Shown here one piece after another: positions 56,411 through 64,000 of a stretch of 64,000 nt of DNA. Origin of the DNA: a bacterium (GTDB lineage: Bacteria > Zhuqueibacterota > Zhuqueibacteria > Residuimicrobiales > Krinioviventaceae). Below the pieces are notes generated by a model. It was not told where the DNA came from. It did no database searches and saw nothing but the letters and a program-made list of their open reading frames with translations. Where the stretch lies: positions 1-64,000 of the forward strand of contig CAXXFV010000020.1 in the NCBI GenBank assembly GCA_963674595.2, given 5' to 3'. The position numbers were made by a program, and so were the translations under genes. How positions within the stretch are numbered: position 1 is the first letter of the stretch; the number at the start of each line of letters is the position of its first letter.

Positions 56411-56788
56411 TTGGTTAAAATATTATACATCGGATTCGGCGGATTTTTAGGTTCTGTTTCACGTTATGCTGTAAGTGGATTTTTTTATCGTTTATTGGAT
56501 AAACCCTGGTTTCCCTATGGAACAATGGCGGTAAATTTAATTGGCTGCCTGGTGATCGGCTTTTTAGGGGGAATTTCCGAATTTAAACAGGTTTTCAGCC
56601 CGGAGCTTCGGTTACTCGTTTTTATCGGATTTCTTGGTGGATTTACAACGTTTTCGACCTTTGAATTTGAGGTGTTTCAACTTTTAAGAGATAATCAGTT
56701 TTTGCCGGCGCTCATTAATGTTGCTGTTCAGATAATAACAGGTTTGGGTGCTGTTTGGGTAGGTTTTCTTTTAGCCAAATTGATTTAG
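56411..56788 (+). CDS. crcB: Fluoride channel CrcB/Fluc
   Basis: GGFLGSVSRY, FPYGTMAVN, GFLGGFTTFSTF. Confidence 0.96.
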   Translation: MVKILYIGFGGFLGSVSRYAVSGFFYRLLDKPWFPYGTMAVNLIGCLVIGFLGGISEFKQVFSPELRLLVFIGFLGGFTTFSTFEFEVFQLLRDNQFLPALINVAVQIITGLGAVWVGFLLAKLI

Positions 56789-56797
56789 GGAGTTAAA

Positions 56798-57136
56798 ATG
56801 AAACTTTTACAGGATGGTAATTTATTACGCATTTTTATCGGTGAAAGTGACAAATTTGAAGGCATGCCGTTATACGAGTGGATTGTGAAACGTGCCAGGG
56901 AACGAAACCTTGCCGGCGCTACAGTCCTTAGAGGCCTGGAAGGCTTTGGCGCCCGAAGCCGGATTCATACAACGAAAATACTTCGCCTCTCTGAAGACCT
57001 GCCGATTGTTGTTGAAATTGTTGATTCGCTTGATAAAATCAATGAATTTTTACCATTAATTGATGATGCCATGAAGGAAGGCCTGGTTACCCTGGAAAAG
57101 GTACAGGTTATACTTTATAGAAGTGAAAAGGAATAA
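56798..57136 (+). CDS. DUF190 (PII-like) protein
   Basis: LRIFIGESD, GATVLRGLEGFG, LSEDLPIVVEIVD. Confidence 0.93.
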   Translation: MKLLQDGNLLRIFIGESDKFEGMPLYEWIVKRARERNLAGATVLRGLEGFGARSRIHTTKILRLSEDLPIVVEIVDSLDKINEFLPLIDDAMKEGLVTLEKVQVILYRSEKE

Positions 57137-59018: not shown

Positions 59019-60962
59019 CTAAGTTATTCTTCTGATTTTAATGGTTTCGGTAATATGCTGCATAATATTAAAAACCTGTTCGGAAACGTCTCTATCAACA
59101 TCAACAATAAGATAACCAATATTTCCTTTGGTTTGCAGAATCTGACCTTCAACGTTTATGTTGCGGCGGGCAAAGACACTGTTGATTTTTGCCAAAACAC
59201 CGGGAACATTGTTGTGTATGTGCAAAATTCGATGTTTACCGTTAAGTTTCGGCAGCTCAACTTCGGGAAAATTTACGGAACCAATGGTTGATCCGTTTGA
59301 TATATATCTTTGAATTTTTTCACTTACATAACTGGCAATGTTTTCCTGGGCTTCCTGTGTGCTGCCGCCAATATGTGGAGTTAAAATAACATTTGGAGAG
59401 TTTTGTAATGGTGCATGAAAACTTTCACTGGATGAGCTTGGTTCGTCAGGAAAAACGTCTACGCCTGCCCCGGCAATTTGACCGTTATCCAAAAAATGAC
59501 GAAGACTGTCAAGCTCTACAACCCGACCACGGCTCAAATTTAATAACAAAGAGCCTTTTTTCATTAGAGACATTTCTTTTTTGCCGATCATATTTCGGGT
59601 GTCCGGTGTGTCCGGTACATGCAGTGTAACAATGTCAGAGTTTATCAATAAATCCGATAAATCTTTTGCCTGCTTGGCGTTTCCTAATGGAAGTTTATCT
59701 ACAATATCATGATAAATAACTGTCATGCCTAAACTTTCCATAAGTACAGAAACCTGGGAGCCGATATGTCCATATCCAACAATACCAATTGTTTTGCCCC
59801 GAATTTCAGAACATCCGGAAGCATCTTTTAACCATTGGCCCTGATGGGCGGCCACACTCTTTTCATAAGCACGCCGGATGAGTATGATCGCTTCACCAAC
59901 AACCAACTCCGCAACACTACGGGTGTTACTGAATGGGGCATTAAAAACAGGAATGCCGGCATTTGTCGCAGCTACAAGATCGATTTGGTTTGTACCAATA
60001 CAAAAGGCTCCCACGACCCACAAGTTGGGAAGGCAGGTAATCGCTTTTGCCGTTATTTTGGTCTTGGACCTTATACCTAATACATTTGTATTTTTTGCCT
60101 GAGAACAAAGCAGCTTTTCGTCCCATGCTTCATTATAACTATCAAGTTTAAAATTATTTTCTTTTAAACGGTTTATGGCTTTAGGGTGAATGTTCTCCAG
60201 CAACGTAATATGTGGTATATGCGATTTATCCTGTATTTTAACCTTGGTCAAAGTTTTTACAGAATCGTTGCCCAATTCATCGTTCGAGCAAAATAATGGC
60301 AGTAATTGATCAAACCGTTCCACAGAAAAGTCAGCCTGATGACGAATTTCTTCCCTGTTTTTTGTGCCGGAGAAATAAACAAATATTTTTGCGATATTGT
60401 TTTTTCGAATAGCCAAATCCGGAAAGCCGTCGCCAACAACCGCTGTGCCGCCCGAAAGTCTGCCTTCGTCTTTTAATCTTTCGGCGATATACACTTTACC
60501 CATGCTTAAAAACAGAGGATTTTCGTGATTTAGTTGATTGACGTTTCCATTTTTATCATAAGATACCTGGTTGGCAAAAACATTGTCATCACTGATGCCT
60601 AATGCCCTGGTAACCGGTCGAACGACCTCTTCAAAACTGCTGCTAAAGACGTAAATATTTTTTCCGCCTTTCATCAGCAGGTCTATTGTTTCCCTAACCA
60701 TCGGATTAATAGTGTCCAGAATGTTCTCCGCTACAATACTGACGTCTGAAAAATTAATCTCCGCCAGAGCAAAGCGTTTTGGCATTGCCTCGCTTAACGG
60801 GATGTCCCCGTTTGTTGCCTTTTCCGTTAGTTCTTTAAGTTTTGCCAGGCGTAAAGATTTATCTTTTGCGTTTGCTCTTTCTATTGCTTCTTTAATGATC
60901 AGGTCAATACCTTCAGCATTAATAATTGTACTATCATAATCAAAAATGATATTATTAATCAT
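59019..60962 (-). CDS. serA: Fused HAD phosphoserine phosphatase-like domain + D-3-phosphoglycerate dehydrogenase + ACT
   Basis: N-terminal IFDYDST..ATNG..GK..VGDG; then FCIGTNQ, VFNAPFSNTRSVAEL, GYGHIG, LTPHIGGSTQEAQ, HIHNNVPG (ACT). Confidence 0.92.
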   Translation of the reverse strand: MINNIIFDYDSTIINAEGIDLIIKEAIERANAKDKSLRLAKLKELTEKATNGDIPLSEAMPKRFALAEINFSDVSIVAENILDTINPMVRETIDLLMKGGKNIYVFSSSFEEVVRPVTRALGISDDNVFANQVSYDKNGNVNQLNHENPLFLSMGKVYIAERLKDEGRLSGGTAVVGDGFPDLAIRKNNIAKIFVYFSGTKNREEIRHQADFSVERFDQLLPLFCSNDELGNDSVKTLTKVKIQDKSHIPHITLLENIHPKAINRLKENNFKLDSYNEAWDEKLLCSQAKNTNVLGIRSKTKITAKAITCLPNLWVVGAFCIGTNQIDLVAATNAGIPVFNAPFSNTRSVAELVVGEAIILIRRAYEKSVAAHQGQWLKDASGCSEIRGKTIGIVGYGHIGSQVSVLMESLGMTVIYHDIVDKLPLGNAKQAKDLSDLLINSDIVTLHVPDTPDTRNMIGKKEMSLMKKGSLLLNLSRGRVVELDSLRHFLDNGQIAGAGVDVFPDEPSSSSESFHAPLQNSPNVILTPHIGGSTQEAQENIASYVSEKIQRYISNGSTIGSVNFPEVELPKLNGKHRILHIHNNVPGVLAKINSVFARRNINVEGQILQTKGNIGYLIVDVDRDVSEQVFNIMQHITETIKIRRIT

Positions 60963-61122
60963 TTTGAAAAACCTTAAATATGTTTAATAAATTTCTATTT
61001 ATGAAGCATATATGATACAAAATTTCTTTAAAATTTACAATAGAAAAGAAAGCTTTTTACGGCAGCAAATAAATACGTTATTTTTTGTGAAATAGTATTT
61101 CAGGTATTATTGTTTAAAAATT

Positions 61123-61141
61123 TACCTTGTAGTGCAAGGTA
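61123..61141. promoter_or_regulatory. Short inverted repeat in the divergent serA / 61209 intergenic region
   Basis: TACCTTG-tagtg-CAAGGTA. Confidence 0.35.
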
Positions 61142-61164
61142 TTTAAGAAAAGGAGGTGTAGAGT

Positions 61165-61194
61165 TTGCAGCAACCCCTTTTAGATGAATTCTAA
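61165..61194 (+). CDS. Possible 9-aa leader mini-ORF (MQQPLLDEF)
   Basis: Perfect AGGAGGTG 61151-58, 6-nt spacer, TTG start; TAA abuts the next AGGAGGTG. Confidence 0.35.
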   Translation: MQQPLLDEF

Positions 61195-61208
61195 AGGAGG
61201 TGATTGTT

Positions 61209-61436
61209 ATGAAGGTTACAATCCCGGATTATTTCACTGGTGTATTTGAAAATACAAGAAATGCACTGGGCGATATGTTAAGTAATCCAACCCTCTGGTC
61301 AGAAGCGATAATTAAAGAGACATTAACAAGGACCGGTAGTCAGGCATTTAATATTGAAGATGTACAACATATCGTACGTGAATATTTAATTGTTTTATCA
61401 GAAAAAGTAAGAGAAGGCTCCGACCTGGGCGTTTAG
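61209..61436 (+). CDS. Small hypothetical protein (75 aa)
   Basis: AGGAGGTG 61195-202, 6-nt spacer, ATG; amphipathic helical sequence MKVTIPDYF...GSDLGV. Confidence 0.7.
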   Translation: MKVTIPDYFTGVFENTRNALGDMLSNPTLWSEAIIKETLTRTGSQAFNIEDVQHIVREYLIVLSEKVREGSDLGV

Positions 61437-61525
61437 CCTTACATGTAAATGTTTTGGGATTGCTGCTTCTCTCCTCCGATATAATTAGTGCCGGTTAGCT
61501 TAAAATACCATAAAGAATAATTATA

Positions 61526-62917
61526 ATGGAAATAGTTGCTTCCAGAATATCTGTCTATGAAGTTGAATTGGATTTAAATAGCTGGGACGTAAAAACAAGT
61601 AATAAAGTACCTGGGTTTTCTCAAAAAATTCTCGAATTAATGCCCACTCTTTCAGACCACAAATGTATGGAAGGCAAACCCGGCGGTTTTATTCGGGAAG
61701 TTGAAAAAGGCACTAATTTTGCCCACATTATTGAACATGTTTTGCTGGAAATGATCCATTTGGCCGATAAAGGCCAGGTATATAAGGGGTGGACACGAAA
61801 GCTTGAAAAAGATCATTACGTTATTCATTATAATGCCCCGGATTTTTTAAAAGGTCGGTTGGCTGCCATTTTGGCTGTGGATTTTGTTAAACATATTTTA
61901 CAAAATAAAAATGTTAAAAGTATTGAATATCTTGATATTTTAAAAAATCCGATTGACTATTTTTCGGGCCATAAAACTGAAACGACCGAGTTATATTTTG
62001 CCGATTCTATAAATGAGTTTAAAACTGTTGAAAAAGCGGTTGATGAATTAAAATCCGAAAGATTGACAACAGAGCAGCAGCAAAATATAATTTTGATCAT
62101 ATCTCACATTCAAAAACATTTTGGTTTTATTAGAGAAACCTGGCGAAAATCATTTTTAACCTTTGGTGGAGAATTTGCCAAAACAATAGAAAATAAAATA
62201 GAGCTTATCAATATTGATAAATTTGCACATTACATTATACAAAATGAATTTGATCGTGTTTTTAGCGGGATTAAAAATCTAAGTCATTTGATCAATACCT
62301 ACCAGATTCCCAAAACCTTTGTCATCCGATCAATATGGCTTTTTAAGAATAAATTGCTCCGCTACATCATTGAAGAATATCAAAACGATAAATTATTTTT
62401 ACAGCATGCGATCAAGGACCTTGAGGATTTTTATCAGATTATTTTGAAAAATGTCAAAATGGGGTTTGAGATGAATGATTATGAAAATAACATTTTTTCT
62501 CAATTACCAGAGCTTGTGGAATTTCGCGAACTTGAGCAGATACGTGGTTATGTGTTGATCGTTGATGATGATGAAGTTGCCAGGCAGGCCTGTGCGGACA
62601 TATTACGTTATCATAGCTATCCTGTTCTCACCGTATCAACCGGATTTGATGCATTGGATAAAATTGTTAAAATGGGTGATGAAATTACCCTGGTAATATT
62701 GGACATAAATTTACCCGATATGAACGGCAAAGAGGTTTATCAACAGATTAAAAACAGTTATCCGGATAAAAAAATAATAATTTCCAGCGGTTTTTTGCCG
62801 GATGACCAGCGAATTCATTTCAAACATGATGTTTTAACGGCGTTTATTGATAAACCCTATAAAGCTGTAGATATAGTAAATAAAGTCAAAATGTTTATGG
62901 AAGATGAAAGTAAATAA
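61526..62917 (+). CDS. Cyanophycin-synthetase N-domain / helical (RsbRD_N- or globin-like) domain / response-regulator receiver fusion
   Basis: MPTLSDHKCMEGKPGGF..GTNFAHIIEHVLLE..GWTR; C-terminal VLIVDDD..LVILDINLPDMNG..IISSGF..FIDKPY. Confidence 0.8.
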   Translation: MEIVASRISVYEVELDLNSWDVKTSNKVPGFSQKILELMPTLSDHKCMEGKPGGFIREVEKGTNFAHIIEHVLLEMIHLADKGQVYKGWTRKLEKDHYVIHYNAPDFLKGRLAAILAVDFVKHILQNKNVKSIEYLDILKNPIDYFSGHKTETTELYFADSINEFKTVEKAVDELKSERLTTEQQQNIILIISHIQKHFGFIRETWRKSFLTFGGEFAKTIENKIELINIDKFAHYIIQNEFDRVFSGIKNLSHLINTYQIPKTFVIRSIWLFKNKLLRYIIEEYQNDKLFLQHAIKDLEDFYQIILKNVKMGFEMNDYENNIFSQLPELVEFRELEQIRGYVLIVDDDEVARQACADILRYHSYPVLTVSTGFDALDKIVKMGDEITLVILDINLPDMNGKEVYQQIKNSYPDKKIIISSGFLPDDQRIHFKHDVLTAFIDKPYKAVDIVNKVKMFMEDESK

Positions 62918-63000
62918 TTCCCGGGGATTATTTTTAGATTGAATCCAATAACACCTGTTTTCATCTAATAAAATAAAATCAAATCAAGAGGAAACAGGAT

Positions 63001-63384
63001 ATGATTATTCTTTATATTATTGCTGGTATTGTTGTATTATTCTTTTCGTTGCAATTTTTTATGGTTATAAAAATGCGATTTAAAAAGGGAAAGGATGCAC
63101 CTTCACTCTCCGGAAGTGCCGGAAAATTAATTCAATCCGGAAATAAAGCATTGTTTTATTTTTTTAGTCCTTCATGCCGTGCCTGTTATGCCATGACACC
63201 GATGATGGAACAATTGTCCAGAAAAAATAAAAATGTTTTTAAAATTGATATTTCAAAAGATATGGATACGGCACGTAAATTTGGAGTTATGGGCACACCG
63301 TCAACGGTTGTTGTTGAAACAGGGAAAATTAAAGAGTTTCTTGTTGGAGCACAATCAGAGTCAAGAATAAAAGCACTTTTATAA
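63001..63384 (+). CDS. Membrane-anchored thioredoxin-family protein
   Basis: N-terminal TM; FFSPSCRAC (CxxC); FGVMGTP cis-Pro loop. Confidence 0.88.
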   Translation: MIILYIIAGIVVLFFSLQFFMVIKMRFKKGKDAPSLSGSAGKLIQSGNKALFYFFSPSCRACYAMTPMMEQLSRKNKNVFKIDISKDMDTARKFGVMGTPSTVVVETGKIKEFLVGAQSESRIKALL

Positions 63385-63390
63385 TAGAAA

Positions 63391-63420
63391 GCCCGGTTTT
63401 ATTACCGGGCCTTTTTTTTT
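63391..63420 (+). terminator. Rho-independent terminator
   Basis: GCCCGGT-tttatt-ACCGGGC-c-T9. Confidence 0.85.
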
Positions 63421-64000
63421 AATTTCCAAATGCTTCGTCAAAAACTCCTTTGGGGGTTGGAAAGTTTAATTCACGTAAAAAGTTACAGGCGTCTGCCGCA
63501 CCAAAATCCCGGTCCATTCCGGCGTCTTCCCATTCAACCGAAAGCGGGCCTGTGTATCCGGCATGGTTTAAGGCCCTGATAACAGCCTCGAAATCCACAT
63601 CGCCGTGGCCTAATGAACGAAAATCCCAGCCACGTCGCGGATCACCAAAATTGAGATGTGATGCTAAAATGCTTGTTGTGCCGTCCAGTGTTACCGCGCT
63701 GTCTTTCATGTGGCAATGATAAATACGGTCACCAAACTCTTCGATAAATTTTATAGGATCTACACCCTGCCATTGTAAATGACTGGGATCAAAGTTAAAT
63801 CCAAAGGATTTACGGTGGTTGATTGCCTCAAGGGCAATTCGTGTTGTTACAATATCATAGGCAATTTCCGTGGGATGTACTTCCAGGGCGAATCTGACAC
63901 CACATTCTTCAAAAACATCCAGAATAGGATTAAATACATCAGCAAAAAATTGATATCCCTTTTCAATTTCTTTAAAATCATTTGGCGGGAATGAATAAAG
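63419..64000 (-). CDS. Sugar phosphate isomerase/epimerase (xylose-isomerase-like TIM barrel), 5'-truncated by the window
   Basis: Frame open from 64000: FALEVHPTEIAYD, GFNFDPSHL, IYHCHMKD, WDFRSLGHG, PLSVEWED. Confidence 0.9.
   Translation of the reverse strand, partial: LYSFPPNDFKEIEKGYQFFADVFNPILDVFEECGVRFALEVHPTEIAYDIVTTRIALEAINHRKSFGFNFDPSHLQWQGVDPIKFIEEFGDRIYHCHMKDSAVTLDGTTSILASHLNFGDPRRGWDFRSLGHGDVDFEAVIRALNHAGYTGPLSVEWEDAGMDRDFGAADACNFLRELNFPTPKGVFDEAFGN

Follow-up and report, generated by a model that had tools for sequence, protein, structure and literature searches.

Three plus-strand genes of the window, by which we mean the whole 64,000-nucleotide stretch of DNA analyzed (C20:1-64000), are described here. 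The largest (61526..62917, + strand) starts with ATG, is open throughout with no stops and encodes a 463-residue protein in which the ORF list, Pfam, the family alignment and an AlphaFold model delineate a domain resembling the N domain of the cyanophycin synthetase CphA, a sensor-globin domain and a phospho-receiver (REC). Upstream lies a small gene for an acidic protein of about 75 residues belonging to no known family (61209..61436, + strand), delimited by its ORF and by conserved linkage. Its frame was listed from a GTG as 61200-61436; the ATG at 61209 suits the N-termini of homologs, and a Shine-Dalgarno-like AAAGGAGGTG, read directly from the sequence (61194..61203, + strand), ends 5 nt from it. 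Downstream is a gene for a thioredoxin-like protein with a hydrophobic N-terminus (63001..63384, + strand; PF00085, E 3.4e-11), which may be cotranscribed but is a singleton in neighbor clustering and is not kept at other loci. The first terminator-like hairpin after the three genes (63391..63419, + strand) has a 7-bp stem with 6 GC pairs and a T-run with 9 T within a 10-base tail; no terminator-like site was found on the plus strand between 61200 and 63390. RNA-library contigs cover the small gene and leave the body of the large gene (61556-63002) uncovered, and are uninformative on expression. None spans the large-gene start with 31 letters on either side, and cotranscription of the small and large genes is not shown by them.

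The upstream small gene is the strongest clue to function, and it had been overlooked in an earlier sequence-only reading of this DNA. Its linkage to the N-domain gene was found in both directions. Among 14 genome loci retrieved with N-domain motifs, 11 carry it immediately upstream of the N-domain gene (gap 85-227 nt; tblastn E 2e-17 to 4e-28). Of the 12 usable metagenome loci retrieved with the small protein, 11 encode an N-domain protein downstream, some of these in stand-alone or REC-less form. The small gene is absent nearby in three of the 13 full-length loci (L006, L010 and L012), and one small-protein locus, L037, has no N-domain gene. No other conserved neighbor emerged when all ORFs within 8 kb were clustered, or when 50 of the 107 ORFs lying within 4.5 kb were scanned with Pfam. 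The small protein is better conserved than the large one: its alignment (A3) has a mean column identity of 61%, with 10 residues invariant, compared with 50% in the large-protein alignment (A1). Its pI ranges from 4.6 to 6.0. This linkage suggests that the small protein may physically partner the N domain. No credible match was obtained from Pfam (best E 0.0092, reached by one of 13 members) or from PDB sequences (best E 0.55), and none from PADLOC. A protein homolog search returned two relatives of similar length, and no fused "Rosetta" form was seen among longer proteins, which is weak evidence. A similarity to HU in the ESM Atlas (0.78) was rejected, being under the level that shuffled sequences reach one-third of the time. 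The acidic pI likewise speaks against a DNA binder of the HU or HTH type, and no HTH family matched above noise.

A conserved three-domain family

The 463-residue protein is an uncharacterized signaling protein of a conserved family. This family comprises 42 full-length members with 35-47% identity from several phyla; the same domain order recurs in 41 other full-length proteins from independent sources, and named MAGs of several phyla contribute 13 full-length loci, so that the fusion is real and recurrent. Conservation in alignment A1 extends across all three domains. No description of a protein combining a CphA-type N domain, a globin and a receiver was found in the literature searched, in agreement with the sequence-only reading, which knew of none. 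No relatives were found in viral contigs.

The AlphaFold model of the full-length protein (mean pLDDT 84.0) showed a disordered linker at residues 149-171, helices at 182-315 and the receiver at 342-462, with a pTM of 0.61 that does not fix the mutual geometry of the domains. The linker (61970..62038, + strand) is variable and of low confidence, with pLDDT below 50 and a gappy stretch in A1.

The N-terminal domain and its clade

Residues 1-148 (61526..61969, + strand) form the CphA-N-like domain, which Pfam, Foldseek, a clade signature and a tree place in a nonsynthetase "Trp clade". The domain had been recognized from the sequence, and the profile, fold and motif comparisons all support that identification. 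PF18921 (Cyanophycin_syn) matches residues 13-125 with E 1.1e-23 and 83.9 bits (cut-off 27), over positions 2-114 of the 115-position profile. For the NCBIfam cyanophycin-synthetase models the match is confined to residues 9-141 (TIGR02068, 91.2 bits; cut-off 850). Pfam finds neither an ATP-grasp nor a Mur-ligase family in the 463-residue protein, which confirms the predicted lack of these domains; together with the TIGR02068 score, this shows that the protein is not a cyanophycin synthetase (CphA1 or CphA2). Peptidase_S51 has no match in the protein either, so it is not of the CphB/CphE type. In Foldseek, the predicted model (pLDDT about 90 in the N domain) superposed on the CphA1 N domains of 7txv_A (rmsd 1.8 Å over 136 columns), 7lg5_A (2.0 Å over 138) and 7wae_A (2.7 Å over 137), with E-values of 2e-6 to 6e-6.

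Alignment to Synechocystis CphA1 (7lg5_A; E 1.2e-12, query residues 12-130 on chain residues 24-142) places H45, C47, F55, H67, E70, H71 and E75 on H57, C59, F67, H79, E82, H83 and E87. The motif H45-x-C47-x19-H67-x-x-E70-H71 (61658..61738, + strand), as read earlier, is intact, and the spacing from C47 to H67 is that of the Cx19HxxEH motif of primer-independent CphA1, a cryptic cyanophycinase site that generates primers. Among the 42 family members H67, E70 and H71 are invariant, and C47 is present in 39, H45 in 40 and F55 and E75 in 41 each. The likeness to the N domain of SuCphA1 (7lg5/7txv, PF18921), at 29-30% identity, thus extends to the same Cys-His-His ligands, general-base Glu and second-shell His, Phe and Glu; the differences are the missing synthetase domains, a separate clade and the protein's own small partner gene. 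Selection maintains the catalytic site in proteins that are not synthetases. In CphA1, as described in excerpts of PMC9262961, the residues of the Cx19HxxEH site ligate Zn and are required for hydrolysis, and the same excerpts describe this hydrolysis as deliberately weak and the domain as doubling as a polymer anchor. By alignment with these residues, metal binding and catalysis by the 463-residue protein are likewise predicted.

The domain falls in its own clade, split from the synthetase N domains with SH-aLRT 99.8 in an unrooted tree. Two basic positions of the cyanophycin groove are replaced. At the position of SuCphA1 R70, 59 of 62 clade members have Glu, whereas 72 of 76 synthetase-type domains have Arg; at that of R100, all 62 members have Trp, a grouping made in this analysis, and an N-terminal insertion of about 12 residues found in synthetases is absent from the clade. 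The C+HxxEH residues are intact in 57 members, and the other 5 are without a motif residue. An Arg shifted by one position had been put forward as a special feature. This residue, R57, occupies a nonconserved column (A/L/S/T/R), and the true family feature is E58, the Glu aligned with R70, which 41 of the 42 family members have. Among the other substrate contacts of SuCphA1, E90 is replaced by H78 (His in 26 of 42) and S60 by M48, and Y98 aligns with the cyanophycin-contacting Y110 (Tyr in 35 of 42, Phe in 5). Y98 is the only contact kept of R70, E90, S60 and Y110, and the window protein lacks a cyanophycin-binding site of the SuCphA1 type. These replacements strengthen the earlier suggestion that the substrate may differ; by its aligned residues, the clade appears to retain catalytic residues without the determinants of cyanophycin binding.

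Members of the clade occur alone (158-183 residues; P0102, P0104-P0108, and also L015 and L041), with the globin only (P0044, P0096 and L044) and with both globin and REC; in P0101 the domain is fused to a ligand-binding IclR_C domain, replacing the usual HTH of the IclR_C family. The range of these forms suggests that the N domain is the constant effector and that the other domains are add-ons. The proposal that the domain was recruited out of the synthetase is not supported, since it belongs to a separate clade with free-standing proteins and the tree is unrooted, so that recruitment may have run either way.

The globin-fold and receiver domains

Residues 172-335 (62039..62530, + strand) were modeled as a separate domain with pLDDT 88.4 and pTM 0.81. 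The best VIA-align matches were 5ohe_A (Z 13.6, rmsd 2.8 Å, 134 residues aligned) and 2w31_B (Z 13.4), followed by 1or4_A (Z 12.2) and 2bnl_A, the RsbR N domain (Z 11.8). A Z of about 13 is possible by chance for helical proteins in VIA-align; however, all 50 rows listed are globin or phycobiliprotein folds, and this uniformity makes the globin match credible. The assignment rests on VIA-align, as the best Foldseek match reached E 0.03 only, above 0.001. Subthreshold leads in the ESM Atlas were 0.84 (a cluster in which 40% of the members carry Protoglobin) and 0.77 (one with RsbRD_N in 22%), and neither Pfam globin, Protoglobin (PF11563) nor RsbRD_N matched the 463-residue protein at E ≤ 1. 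The resemblance to RsbRD_N and globin-coupled sensors that had been weakly called from sequence is therefore upheld at the level of fold matches, though not by a Pfam family match, and the model indicates a sensor-globin or RsbR-N-type fold. Within residues 172-335 no His is invariant; the column richest in His has it in 32 of 42 members, and the window protein has Arg there. Lacking a conserved proximal His, the domain is probably haem-free, like RsbR.

Its likeness to the sensor globins AfGcHK (5ohe), GsGCS (2w31), HemAT (1or4) and DosC (4zva) and to the non-haem RsbR-N (2bnl) and pXO2-61 (3pmc) covers the whole domain, with Z 11.7-13.6 and rmsd 2.8-3.6 Å over 125-139 aligned residues. Like the known sensor globins, it adjoins a signaling domain; unlike them, it stands in the middle of the protein and is followed by a receiver and not by a kinase, MCP, GGDEF or STAS domain. 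The excerpts of the photoglobin paper available (PMC8717448) do not mention cyanophycin-type domains.

The receiver (residues 338-463; 62537..62914, + strand) was assigned from PF00072, conserved residues and Foldseek. Response_reg matches residues 343-454 with E 6.9e-18 and 65.3 bits (cut-off 30.2), and Foldseek matched it to 3crn_B at rmsd 1.8 Å. As read from the sequence, the receiver residues are complete in the window protein, with D348/D349, D393 (codon 62702-62704), S421 and K443-P444. D347-D349, K443, P444 and S/T421 are conserved in all 42 members and D393 in 39. The genome has 105 HATPase_c matches, none of them inside the window, consistent with the earlier observation of no kinase there, and the one nearest to the gene lies at C20:92648. 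PAS/GAF hybrid kinases are encoded downstream in 2 of the 14 related loci (L013 and L003).

A candidate regulated hydrolase and its alternatives

The reading that we prefer, with a probability of about 55%, is that of an enzyme-type response regulator with a sensor- and phosphorylation-gated metallohydrolase output, a small partner and a substrate other than cyanophycin. The locus would then be a two-gene module, its larger gene encoding the response regulator. Residues 1-148 would act as the output, a small hydrolase with a Cys-His-His metal site, probably for Zn, in which C47, H67 and H71 would be the metal ligands and E70 the general base, with H45, F55 and E75 in the second shell. The haem-less globin and the receiver, both C-terminal to the output, would be the input modules: the globin may bind a ligand or mediate dimerization, and D393 would be phosphorylated by a histidine kinase whose gene lies elsewhere in the genome. 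Phosphorylation and the globin-sensed signal would switch the hydrolase on or off. The acidic protein of about 75 residues could be the hydrolase domain's dedicated partner, as a substrate, an inhibitor or a specificity subunit, and the substrate is expected to be a peptide or a protein. Several observations count against this reading, namely the C-terminal receiver, the absence of a kinase from the window, the five clade members without a motif residue, the loci at which one gene of the pair is missing, the weak hydrolysis by the CphA1 N domain and the unfixed geometry of the domains in the model.

A wholly artifactual origin can be set aside. The genome is an assembly of 37 contigs (97.6% complete, 5% estimated contamination), and in a PF18921 search of the sample of the host's phylum no other genome carried the gene. 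A full-length profile search of the phylum was dominated by receiver matches from every genome, and among the matches listed only that of this genome extends N-terminal of profile position 266. An assembly chimera, binning artifact or pseudogene is nevertheless refuted for practical purposes by recurrence in 41 independent proteins and in 13 MAG loci. The open frame with conservation in all three domains also speaks against it, as do 12 public runs from several studies that each contain at least half of the sampled words from a 2351-base stretch. Cyanophycin itself is a nitrogen-storage polymer. The sequence-only reading had considered cyanophycinase activity gated by phosphorylation, or the sensing of cyanophycin or its Asp-Arg peptide. 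The β-Asp-Arg polymer would then have to come from other organisms or from an unrecognized synthetase. Homology and fold do point to the only characterized member, whose substrate is cyanophycin (PMC9262961, in excerpt), as does Y98 at the Y110 position. This proposal now appears highly improbable. The genome has no cphA, with PF18921 occurring once and the best TIGR02068 match being the 463-residue ORF itself (92 bits against the cut-off of 850), and it has no match to the S51 cyanophycinase family. Together with the replacement of R70 and R100 across the clade and the missing N-terminal insertion, these absences indicate that the substrate is not cyanophycin; the replacements at E90 and S60 in the window protein, the nonexistence of M-domain contacts and an N-terminus that does not read as signal peptide-like, as would be needed to reach external polymer, point the same way.

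A sensor that is not an enzyme is a weightier alternative, though still an unlikely one in our judgment. Here the N domain would bind a metal ion, a peptide or the small protein without turnover and would, with the globin, tune the C-terminal receiver as the real output, making the protein a CheY-like module, a connector or a phosphate sink in a phosphorelay. Receivers usually precede their outputs, and those placed C-terminally are met more typically in hybrid kinases and phosphorelay proteins; the gene is also an orphan with no adjacent kinase, and the Cys-His-His site of its product could sense metal. Five related genomes carry a divergent, stand-alone N-like gene beside a separate REC-DUF4388 regulator gene, suggesting that such domains communicate with receivers. 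A noncatalytic role is also possible because the CphA1 N domain, weakly hydrolytic and a polymer anchor, has a purely binding role as well (excerpts of PMC9262961). However, the general-base E70, needless for binding or metal sensing, is invariant, the motif and the small partner are kept in forms without the receiver or the globin, and the N domain of P0101 holds the place of an output domain beside IclR_C.

Response regulators with enzymatic outputs include the CheB methylesterase, the PleD and WspR cyclases and the HD-GYP protein RpfG. The 463-residue protein shares with them a full phospho-acceptor receiver fused to a (here putative) enzyme domain, and differs in that its receiver is C-terminal and a globin lies between receiver and enzyme domain. 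No description of a metallopeptidase-like output in a response regulator was found in the literature searched; if the enzyme reading is true, the protein would add a peptidase type of output to the response-regulator repertoire. ImmA/ImmR and IrrE/DdrO are pairs of a metallopeptidase and an adjacent small-substrate gene. They offer an analogy, not a homology, in the tight linkage of a small metallopeptidase-like gene to a small gene; the proteins are unrelated in sequence and fold, and the small protein here is acidic and without an HTH match above noise.

The zinc-peptidase-like domain is otherwise known only from the cyanophycin-making enzyme, in which the Cys-His-His site was found only in 2022, and this family would add a second, nonsynthetase context for it. 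As a tentative extension that we judge less likely than not, the CphA N domain might be no invention of the synthetase but one branch of a wider, so far unrecognized family of Cys-His-His zinc endopeptidases of only about 150 residues. The sister branch would be a two-gene switch with a dedicated 75-residue protein that is cleaved by or gates the peptidase, a switch brought in this lineage under the control of a two-component system and a sensor globin. On that view the protein would be the first response regulator with a peptidase output, coupling a receiver directly to regulated proteolysis. The forms that stand free and those that are fused bear on the origin of the cyanophycin synthetase's cryptic third active site, and with the small partner they provide a concrete and easily tested hypothesis. 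Proteins of the family are currently annotated only as "response regulator" or "CheY-like". The clade signature of Glu at R70, Trp at R100 and no N-terminal insertion separates them in annotation from synthetase fragments, and PF18921 scores are about 80 bits in the clade compared with about 120-155 for synthetase N domains.

Domain architecture of the large-gene product

The large gene (61526..62917, + strand) is a single open frame of 463 codons for amino acids. A Pfam scan matched residues 13-125 to the cyanophycin synthase-like N-terminal domain PF18921 (E 1.1e-23, 83.9 bits, cut-off 27) and residues 343-454 to the receiver family PF00072 (E 6.9e-18), and found no further family. Full-length cyanophycin-synthetase models (NCBIfam) covered residues 9-141 only, scoring 91 bits where the cut-off is 850. 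The top phmmer match among PDB sequences was Synechocystis CphA1 (SuCphA1; 7lg5_A, E 1.2e-12), with query residues 12-130 aligned to chain residues 24-142. At this +12 offset, H45, C47, F55, H67, E70, H71 and E75 correspond to SuCphA1 H57, C59, F67, H79, E82, H83 and E87. According to Sharon et al. (2022, PMC9262961), C59, H79 and H83 ligate a metal assigned tentatively as Zn, with E82 as general base and H57, E87 and F67 as second shell; mutating H57, C59, R70, H79 or E82 impairs primer-independent activity.

The AlphaFold2 model of the full-length protein, which rests on a 42-sequence alignment (mean pLDDT 84.0, pTM 0.61), has three parts: the N domain, which is folded; helices (182-315) preceded by a disordered linker (149-171); and a receiver. 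Using Foldseek, the N domain superposed on CphA1 N domains (7txv_A, rmsd 1.8 Å over 136 columns; 7lg5_A, 2.0 Å over 138) and the C-terminus on CheY-like receivers (3crn_B, 1.8 Å). The sequence-only reading had described a CphA-N-like domain, a helical segment and a receiver, and had proposed superposing the modeled N domain on that of CphA1; the single frame, the Pfam matches, the model and the 1.8-2.0 Å superpositions all bear this out. Its statement that the window lacks a kinase also holds, the nearest of the 105 HATPase_c matches in the genome lying at position 92648 of the same contig.

A separate model of residues 172-335, built with 13 homologous segments that were translated from related loci, had pLDDT 88.4 and pTM 0.81. 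Foldseek returned weak globin matches only, the best being the AfGcHK globin 5ohf_C (E 0.03). An independent VIA-align search of 48,161 chains, in which helical proteins can reach Z near 13 by chance, matched the AfGcHK sensor globin 5ohe_A (Z 13.6, rmsd 2.8 Å, 134 aligned), a Geobacter globin-coupled sensor 2w31_B (Z 13.4, 3.0 Å, 137), HemAT 1or4_A (Z 12.2, 3.3 Å, 131), pXO2-61 3pmc_B (Z 12.1, 3.2 Å, 128), the RsbR N-domain 2bnl_A (Z 11.8, 2.8 Å, 125) and the DosC globin 4zva_A (Z 11.7, 3.6 Å, 139). All of the best 50 rows were globins or phycobiliproteins. On the basis of this uniform list and of a match over the whole domain, the middle domain, as modeled, is a sensor globin fold, in agreement with an earlier weak call of an RsbRD_N or globin-coupled sensor domain. 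It is most like the non-heme sensor globins, since the alignment of 42 full-length members contains no invariant His in this domain (the best column has His in 32/42 and Arg in the window protein) and Pfam gave no globin-family match. The ESM Atlas provided below-threshold leads only, namely one cluster (0.84) in which 40% of members have Protoglobin and another (0.77) in which 22% have RsbRD_N. Within the large gene, where the globin-coding part begins, lies a perfect 12/12 sigma-70-type consensus (62063-62091, +; TTGACA, 17 nt, TATAAT), which may have arisen by chance, the DNA being AT-rich, or may be an internal promoter from which a globin-receiver product is made.

Family members and the N-domain clade

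Of 7191 candidates from a search of 5.8 billion proteins with the window protein, 88 matched at E ≤ 0.001. The best 42 of the 88, the window protein included, are 427-492 aa long and all contain PF18921 and PF00072; the other 41 share 35-47% identity with the window protein. Source names, where given for these 42, are only "response regulator" or "CheY-like chemotaxis protein". In their alignment H67, E70 and H71 are present in 42/42, F55 and E75 in 41/42, H45 in 40/42 and C47 in 39/42, so the C/H/E/H conservation that had been in question stands at 39-42 of 42. The receiver residues D347-D349, S/T421, K443 and P444 occur in all 42, and D393 in 39, the other three having Asn. Scanning one genome per species gave 13 full-length loci, which lie in metagenome-assembled genomes labeled Zixibacteria, Krumholzibacteriia, Gemmatimonadales, Syntrophus/Smithellaceae, "Deltaproteobacteria" and others, plus one locus with the N domain alone. 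Presence of the fusion in other genomes, on which the earlier reading had depended, is established by these 13 loci, and an origin of the fusion as an assembly artefact has a negligible probability.

In order to place the N domain, residues 1-142 were used in an exhaustive phmmer search of 1.84 billion cluster representatives, giving 822 matches at E ≤ 0.001, of which 141 reached ≤ 1e-10 and 17 reached ≤ 1e-30. The fusion family came first, followed by free-standing proteins (P0102 and P0104-P0108, 158-183 aa) and an IclR_C fusion, and then by synthetases and fragments. The IclR_C fusion (P0101, 378 aa) joins a CphA-N-like domain to the IclR_C ligand-binding domain, and the N-like domain occupies the place of the usual HTH of IclR regulators. 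PF18921 scores were ~120-155 bits for synthetase types compared to ~60-95 for the fusion, free-standing and IclR_C group. From 190 N-domain matches among 235 proteins, 138 N domains covering most of the query fell into two sets according to the presence of Trp at position 89, the SuCphA1 R100 position. The Trp set (n = 62), which includes P0101 and every protein with a receiver or globin match, has Glu at the R70 position in 59/62 and an intact C+HxxEH in 57/62. The other set (n = 76) has Lys or Arg, and in rare cases Gln or Ser, at the position of R100, and Arg at the R70 position in 72/76. A ~12-residue insertion near the N-terminus in the five full-length synthetase-type sequences aligned with MAFFT is absent from the Trp clade. 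A branch with SH-aLRT 99.8 separates all 62 Trp-set members from the rest in a maximum-likelihood tree (138 rows, 142 columns, two signature columns removed). Being unrooted, this tree carries no information on the ancestral form. By these sequence comparisons, the N domain of the window protein belongs to its own clade.

The putative small partner gene and proposed function

Directly upstream of the large gene is a 78-codon ORF (61200-61436, +). A strong AAAGGAGGTG box (61194-61203) is followed by an ATG at 61209, from which a product of ~75 aa is predicted. By tblastn (E 2e-17 to 4e-28), the small gene precedes the N-domain gene by 85-227 nt in 10/13 full-length genome loci, and it also precedes a free-standing N-domain gene (L015); it was not found by tblastn at L006, L010 and L012. 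An alignment of 13 small proteins has 61% mean column identity, with L32, W33, S34, T41, R44, G46, D54, Q56, Y62 and V65 invariant, and all 13 are mildly acidic (pI 4.6-6.0). There was no match to the small protein in Pfam, PDB sequences or PADLOC. As a reverse test, a metagenome scan seeded with the small protein alone identified 13 loci. Downstream of the small gene were a full three-domain gene (L036, L038, L045, L047, L048), a three-domain gene up to the contig end (L040), an N-plus-globin gene ending before any receiver, with PF18921 as its only Pfam match (L044), a free-standing N domain (L041 and L042, identical ORFs and hence not independent), or the beginning of an N-domain gene followed by the contig end (L039, L046). 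There was no room downstream at L043 and no N-domain gene within 1264 nt downstream at L037. As the N-domain genes downstream include receiver-less ones, the small gene tracks the N domain rather than the receiver.

Sensor and receiver domains are normally joined to an effector. The Trp-clade N domain occurs in four settings: unfused, joined to a globin alone, joined to a globin plus receiver, and joined to IclR_C. The catalytic residues are kept in all four, and the small partner gene in the forms checked, which were those other than the IclR_C fusion P0101. On these grounds we take the N domain to be the output. In the joint reading, to which we assign a probability of about 0.55, the N domain would be a putative small metallohydrolase, the globin and phosphorylation of D393 would control its activity or access, and the ~75-aa protein would be its putative partner, acting as substrate, inhibitor or specificity factor. 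The main alternative is a purely binding N domain, with a metal, a peptide or the ~75-aa protein as its ligand, which tunes the CheY-like C-terminal receiver. The unusual C-terminal position of the receiver speaks for such a role; however, the general-base Glu is invariant and receiver-less forms exist, and we consider this alternative rather unlikely.

A cyanophycin-directed role is far less probable still. The R70 side chain of CphA1 contacts cyanophycin, and R70A impairs primer-independent activity, according to PMC9262961. The charge reversal at this position, the replacement of E90 by H78 and of S60 by M48, and the missing M-domain contacts argue for a substrate of the window N domain that differs from that of CphA1. 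The genome (97.6% complete) contains no second PF18921 match, no cyanophycin-synthetase match beyond the large gene and no match to Peptidase_S51, for which a control search was positive in 10/14 reference genomes; the proposed check for cphA and cphB thus found neither. The large-gene product is best filed as a response regulator with a putative enzymatic output, and its output domain type is characterized only inside cyanophycin synthetase. The three-domain architecture will already be listed automatically by domain databases. In full-text literature, with most subscription journals outside coverage, we found no description of this domain arrangement, of the clade with its free-standing members or of the small protein, consistent with the earlier statement that no described protein of this kind was known to its author.

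Genomic surroundings and occurrence

The two-gene module is flanked by a divergent gene (59019-60962, −) encoding a 647-aa fusion of HAD phosphatase-like, D-isomer 2-hydroxyacid dehydrogenase and ACT domains, which we take to resemble a SerB-SerA-type fusion, and by a thioredoxin-like gene (63001-63384; Pfam). The only + strand terminator-like hairpin after 61200 (63391-63410) lies 3' of the latter. Farther neighbors are ordinary: an S9 peptidase, an adjoining CrcB (PF02537) and DUF190 (PF02641) pair (56411-57136, +), an NAD-dependent epimerase, a thioesterase and a xylose-isomerase-like TIM barrel. Across related loci no neighbor recurs except the small gene. PAS/GAF hybrid kinases lie downstream at L013 (directly) and L003 (after an Fe-ADH gene). 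Two Syntrophus-type loci carry conserved ~111-aa proteins upstream of the small gene (L007 5412-5744; L009 4601-4933, also 1291-1881) with no Pfam match, beside PAS and hemerythrin genes in L007 and a single-receiver gene in L009. No relatives were found in viral contigs.

The distribution is patchy. PF18921 matches occur in 18/167 genomes of the phylum: three synthetase-sized frames (871-936 aa, 126-152 bits), fourteen short weak frames (208-260 aa, 25-53 bits) and the large gene itself, in tallies that take in two unpublished genomes (G158 and G162) with negative rows only. There was no match in any of the 18 other genomes of the family or in other genomes of the order. Together with a G+C of 0.32-0.34 across the two-gene module (61000-63000), compared to 0.38-0.42 in flanking genes, this uniqueness within the order suggests horizontal acquisition. 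The fourteen short frames (14/167 phylum genomes, ~210-260 aa, 25-53 bits on PF18921) form a third, more divergent free-standing CphA-N-like group, which still has HxC and HxxEH in L052 and L053. Five of the 14, spread over two taxonomic families, are followed directly by a REC-DUF4388 response-regulator gene (L052, G123:C7, 1396-2034 and 2220-3356; also L053, L054, L055 and L063), and this pair is a second, unfused link between a CphA-N-like domain and receivers.

RNA-library contigs at least 99% alike, from two studies, cover the small gene (X14 and X19, from one sample, and X18), one of them (61362-61555) extending 119 nt beyond its stop codon, and contigs of X14 and X20 cover the thioredoxin-like gene; such libraries may contain DNA. 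At least half of the sampled words of 61100-63450 were present in twelve public runs from several studies; the organism, or a strain nearly identical to it, therefore turns up repeatedly in public data.
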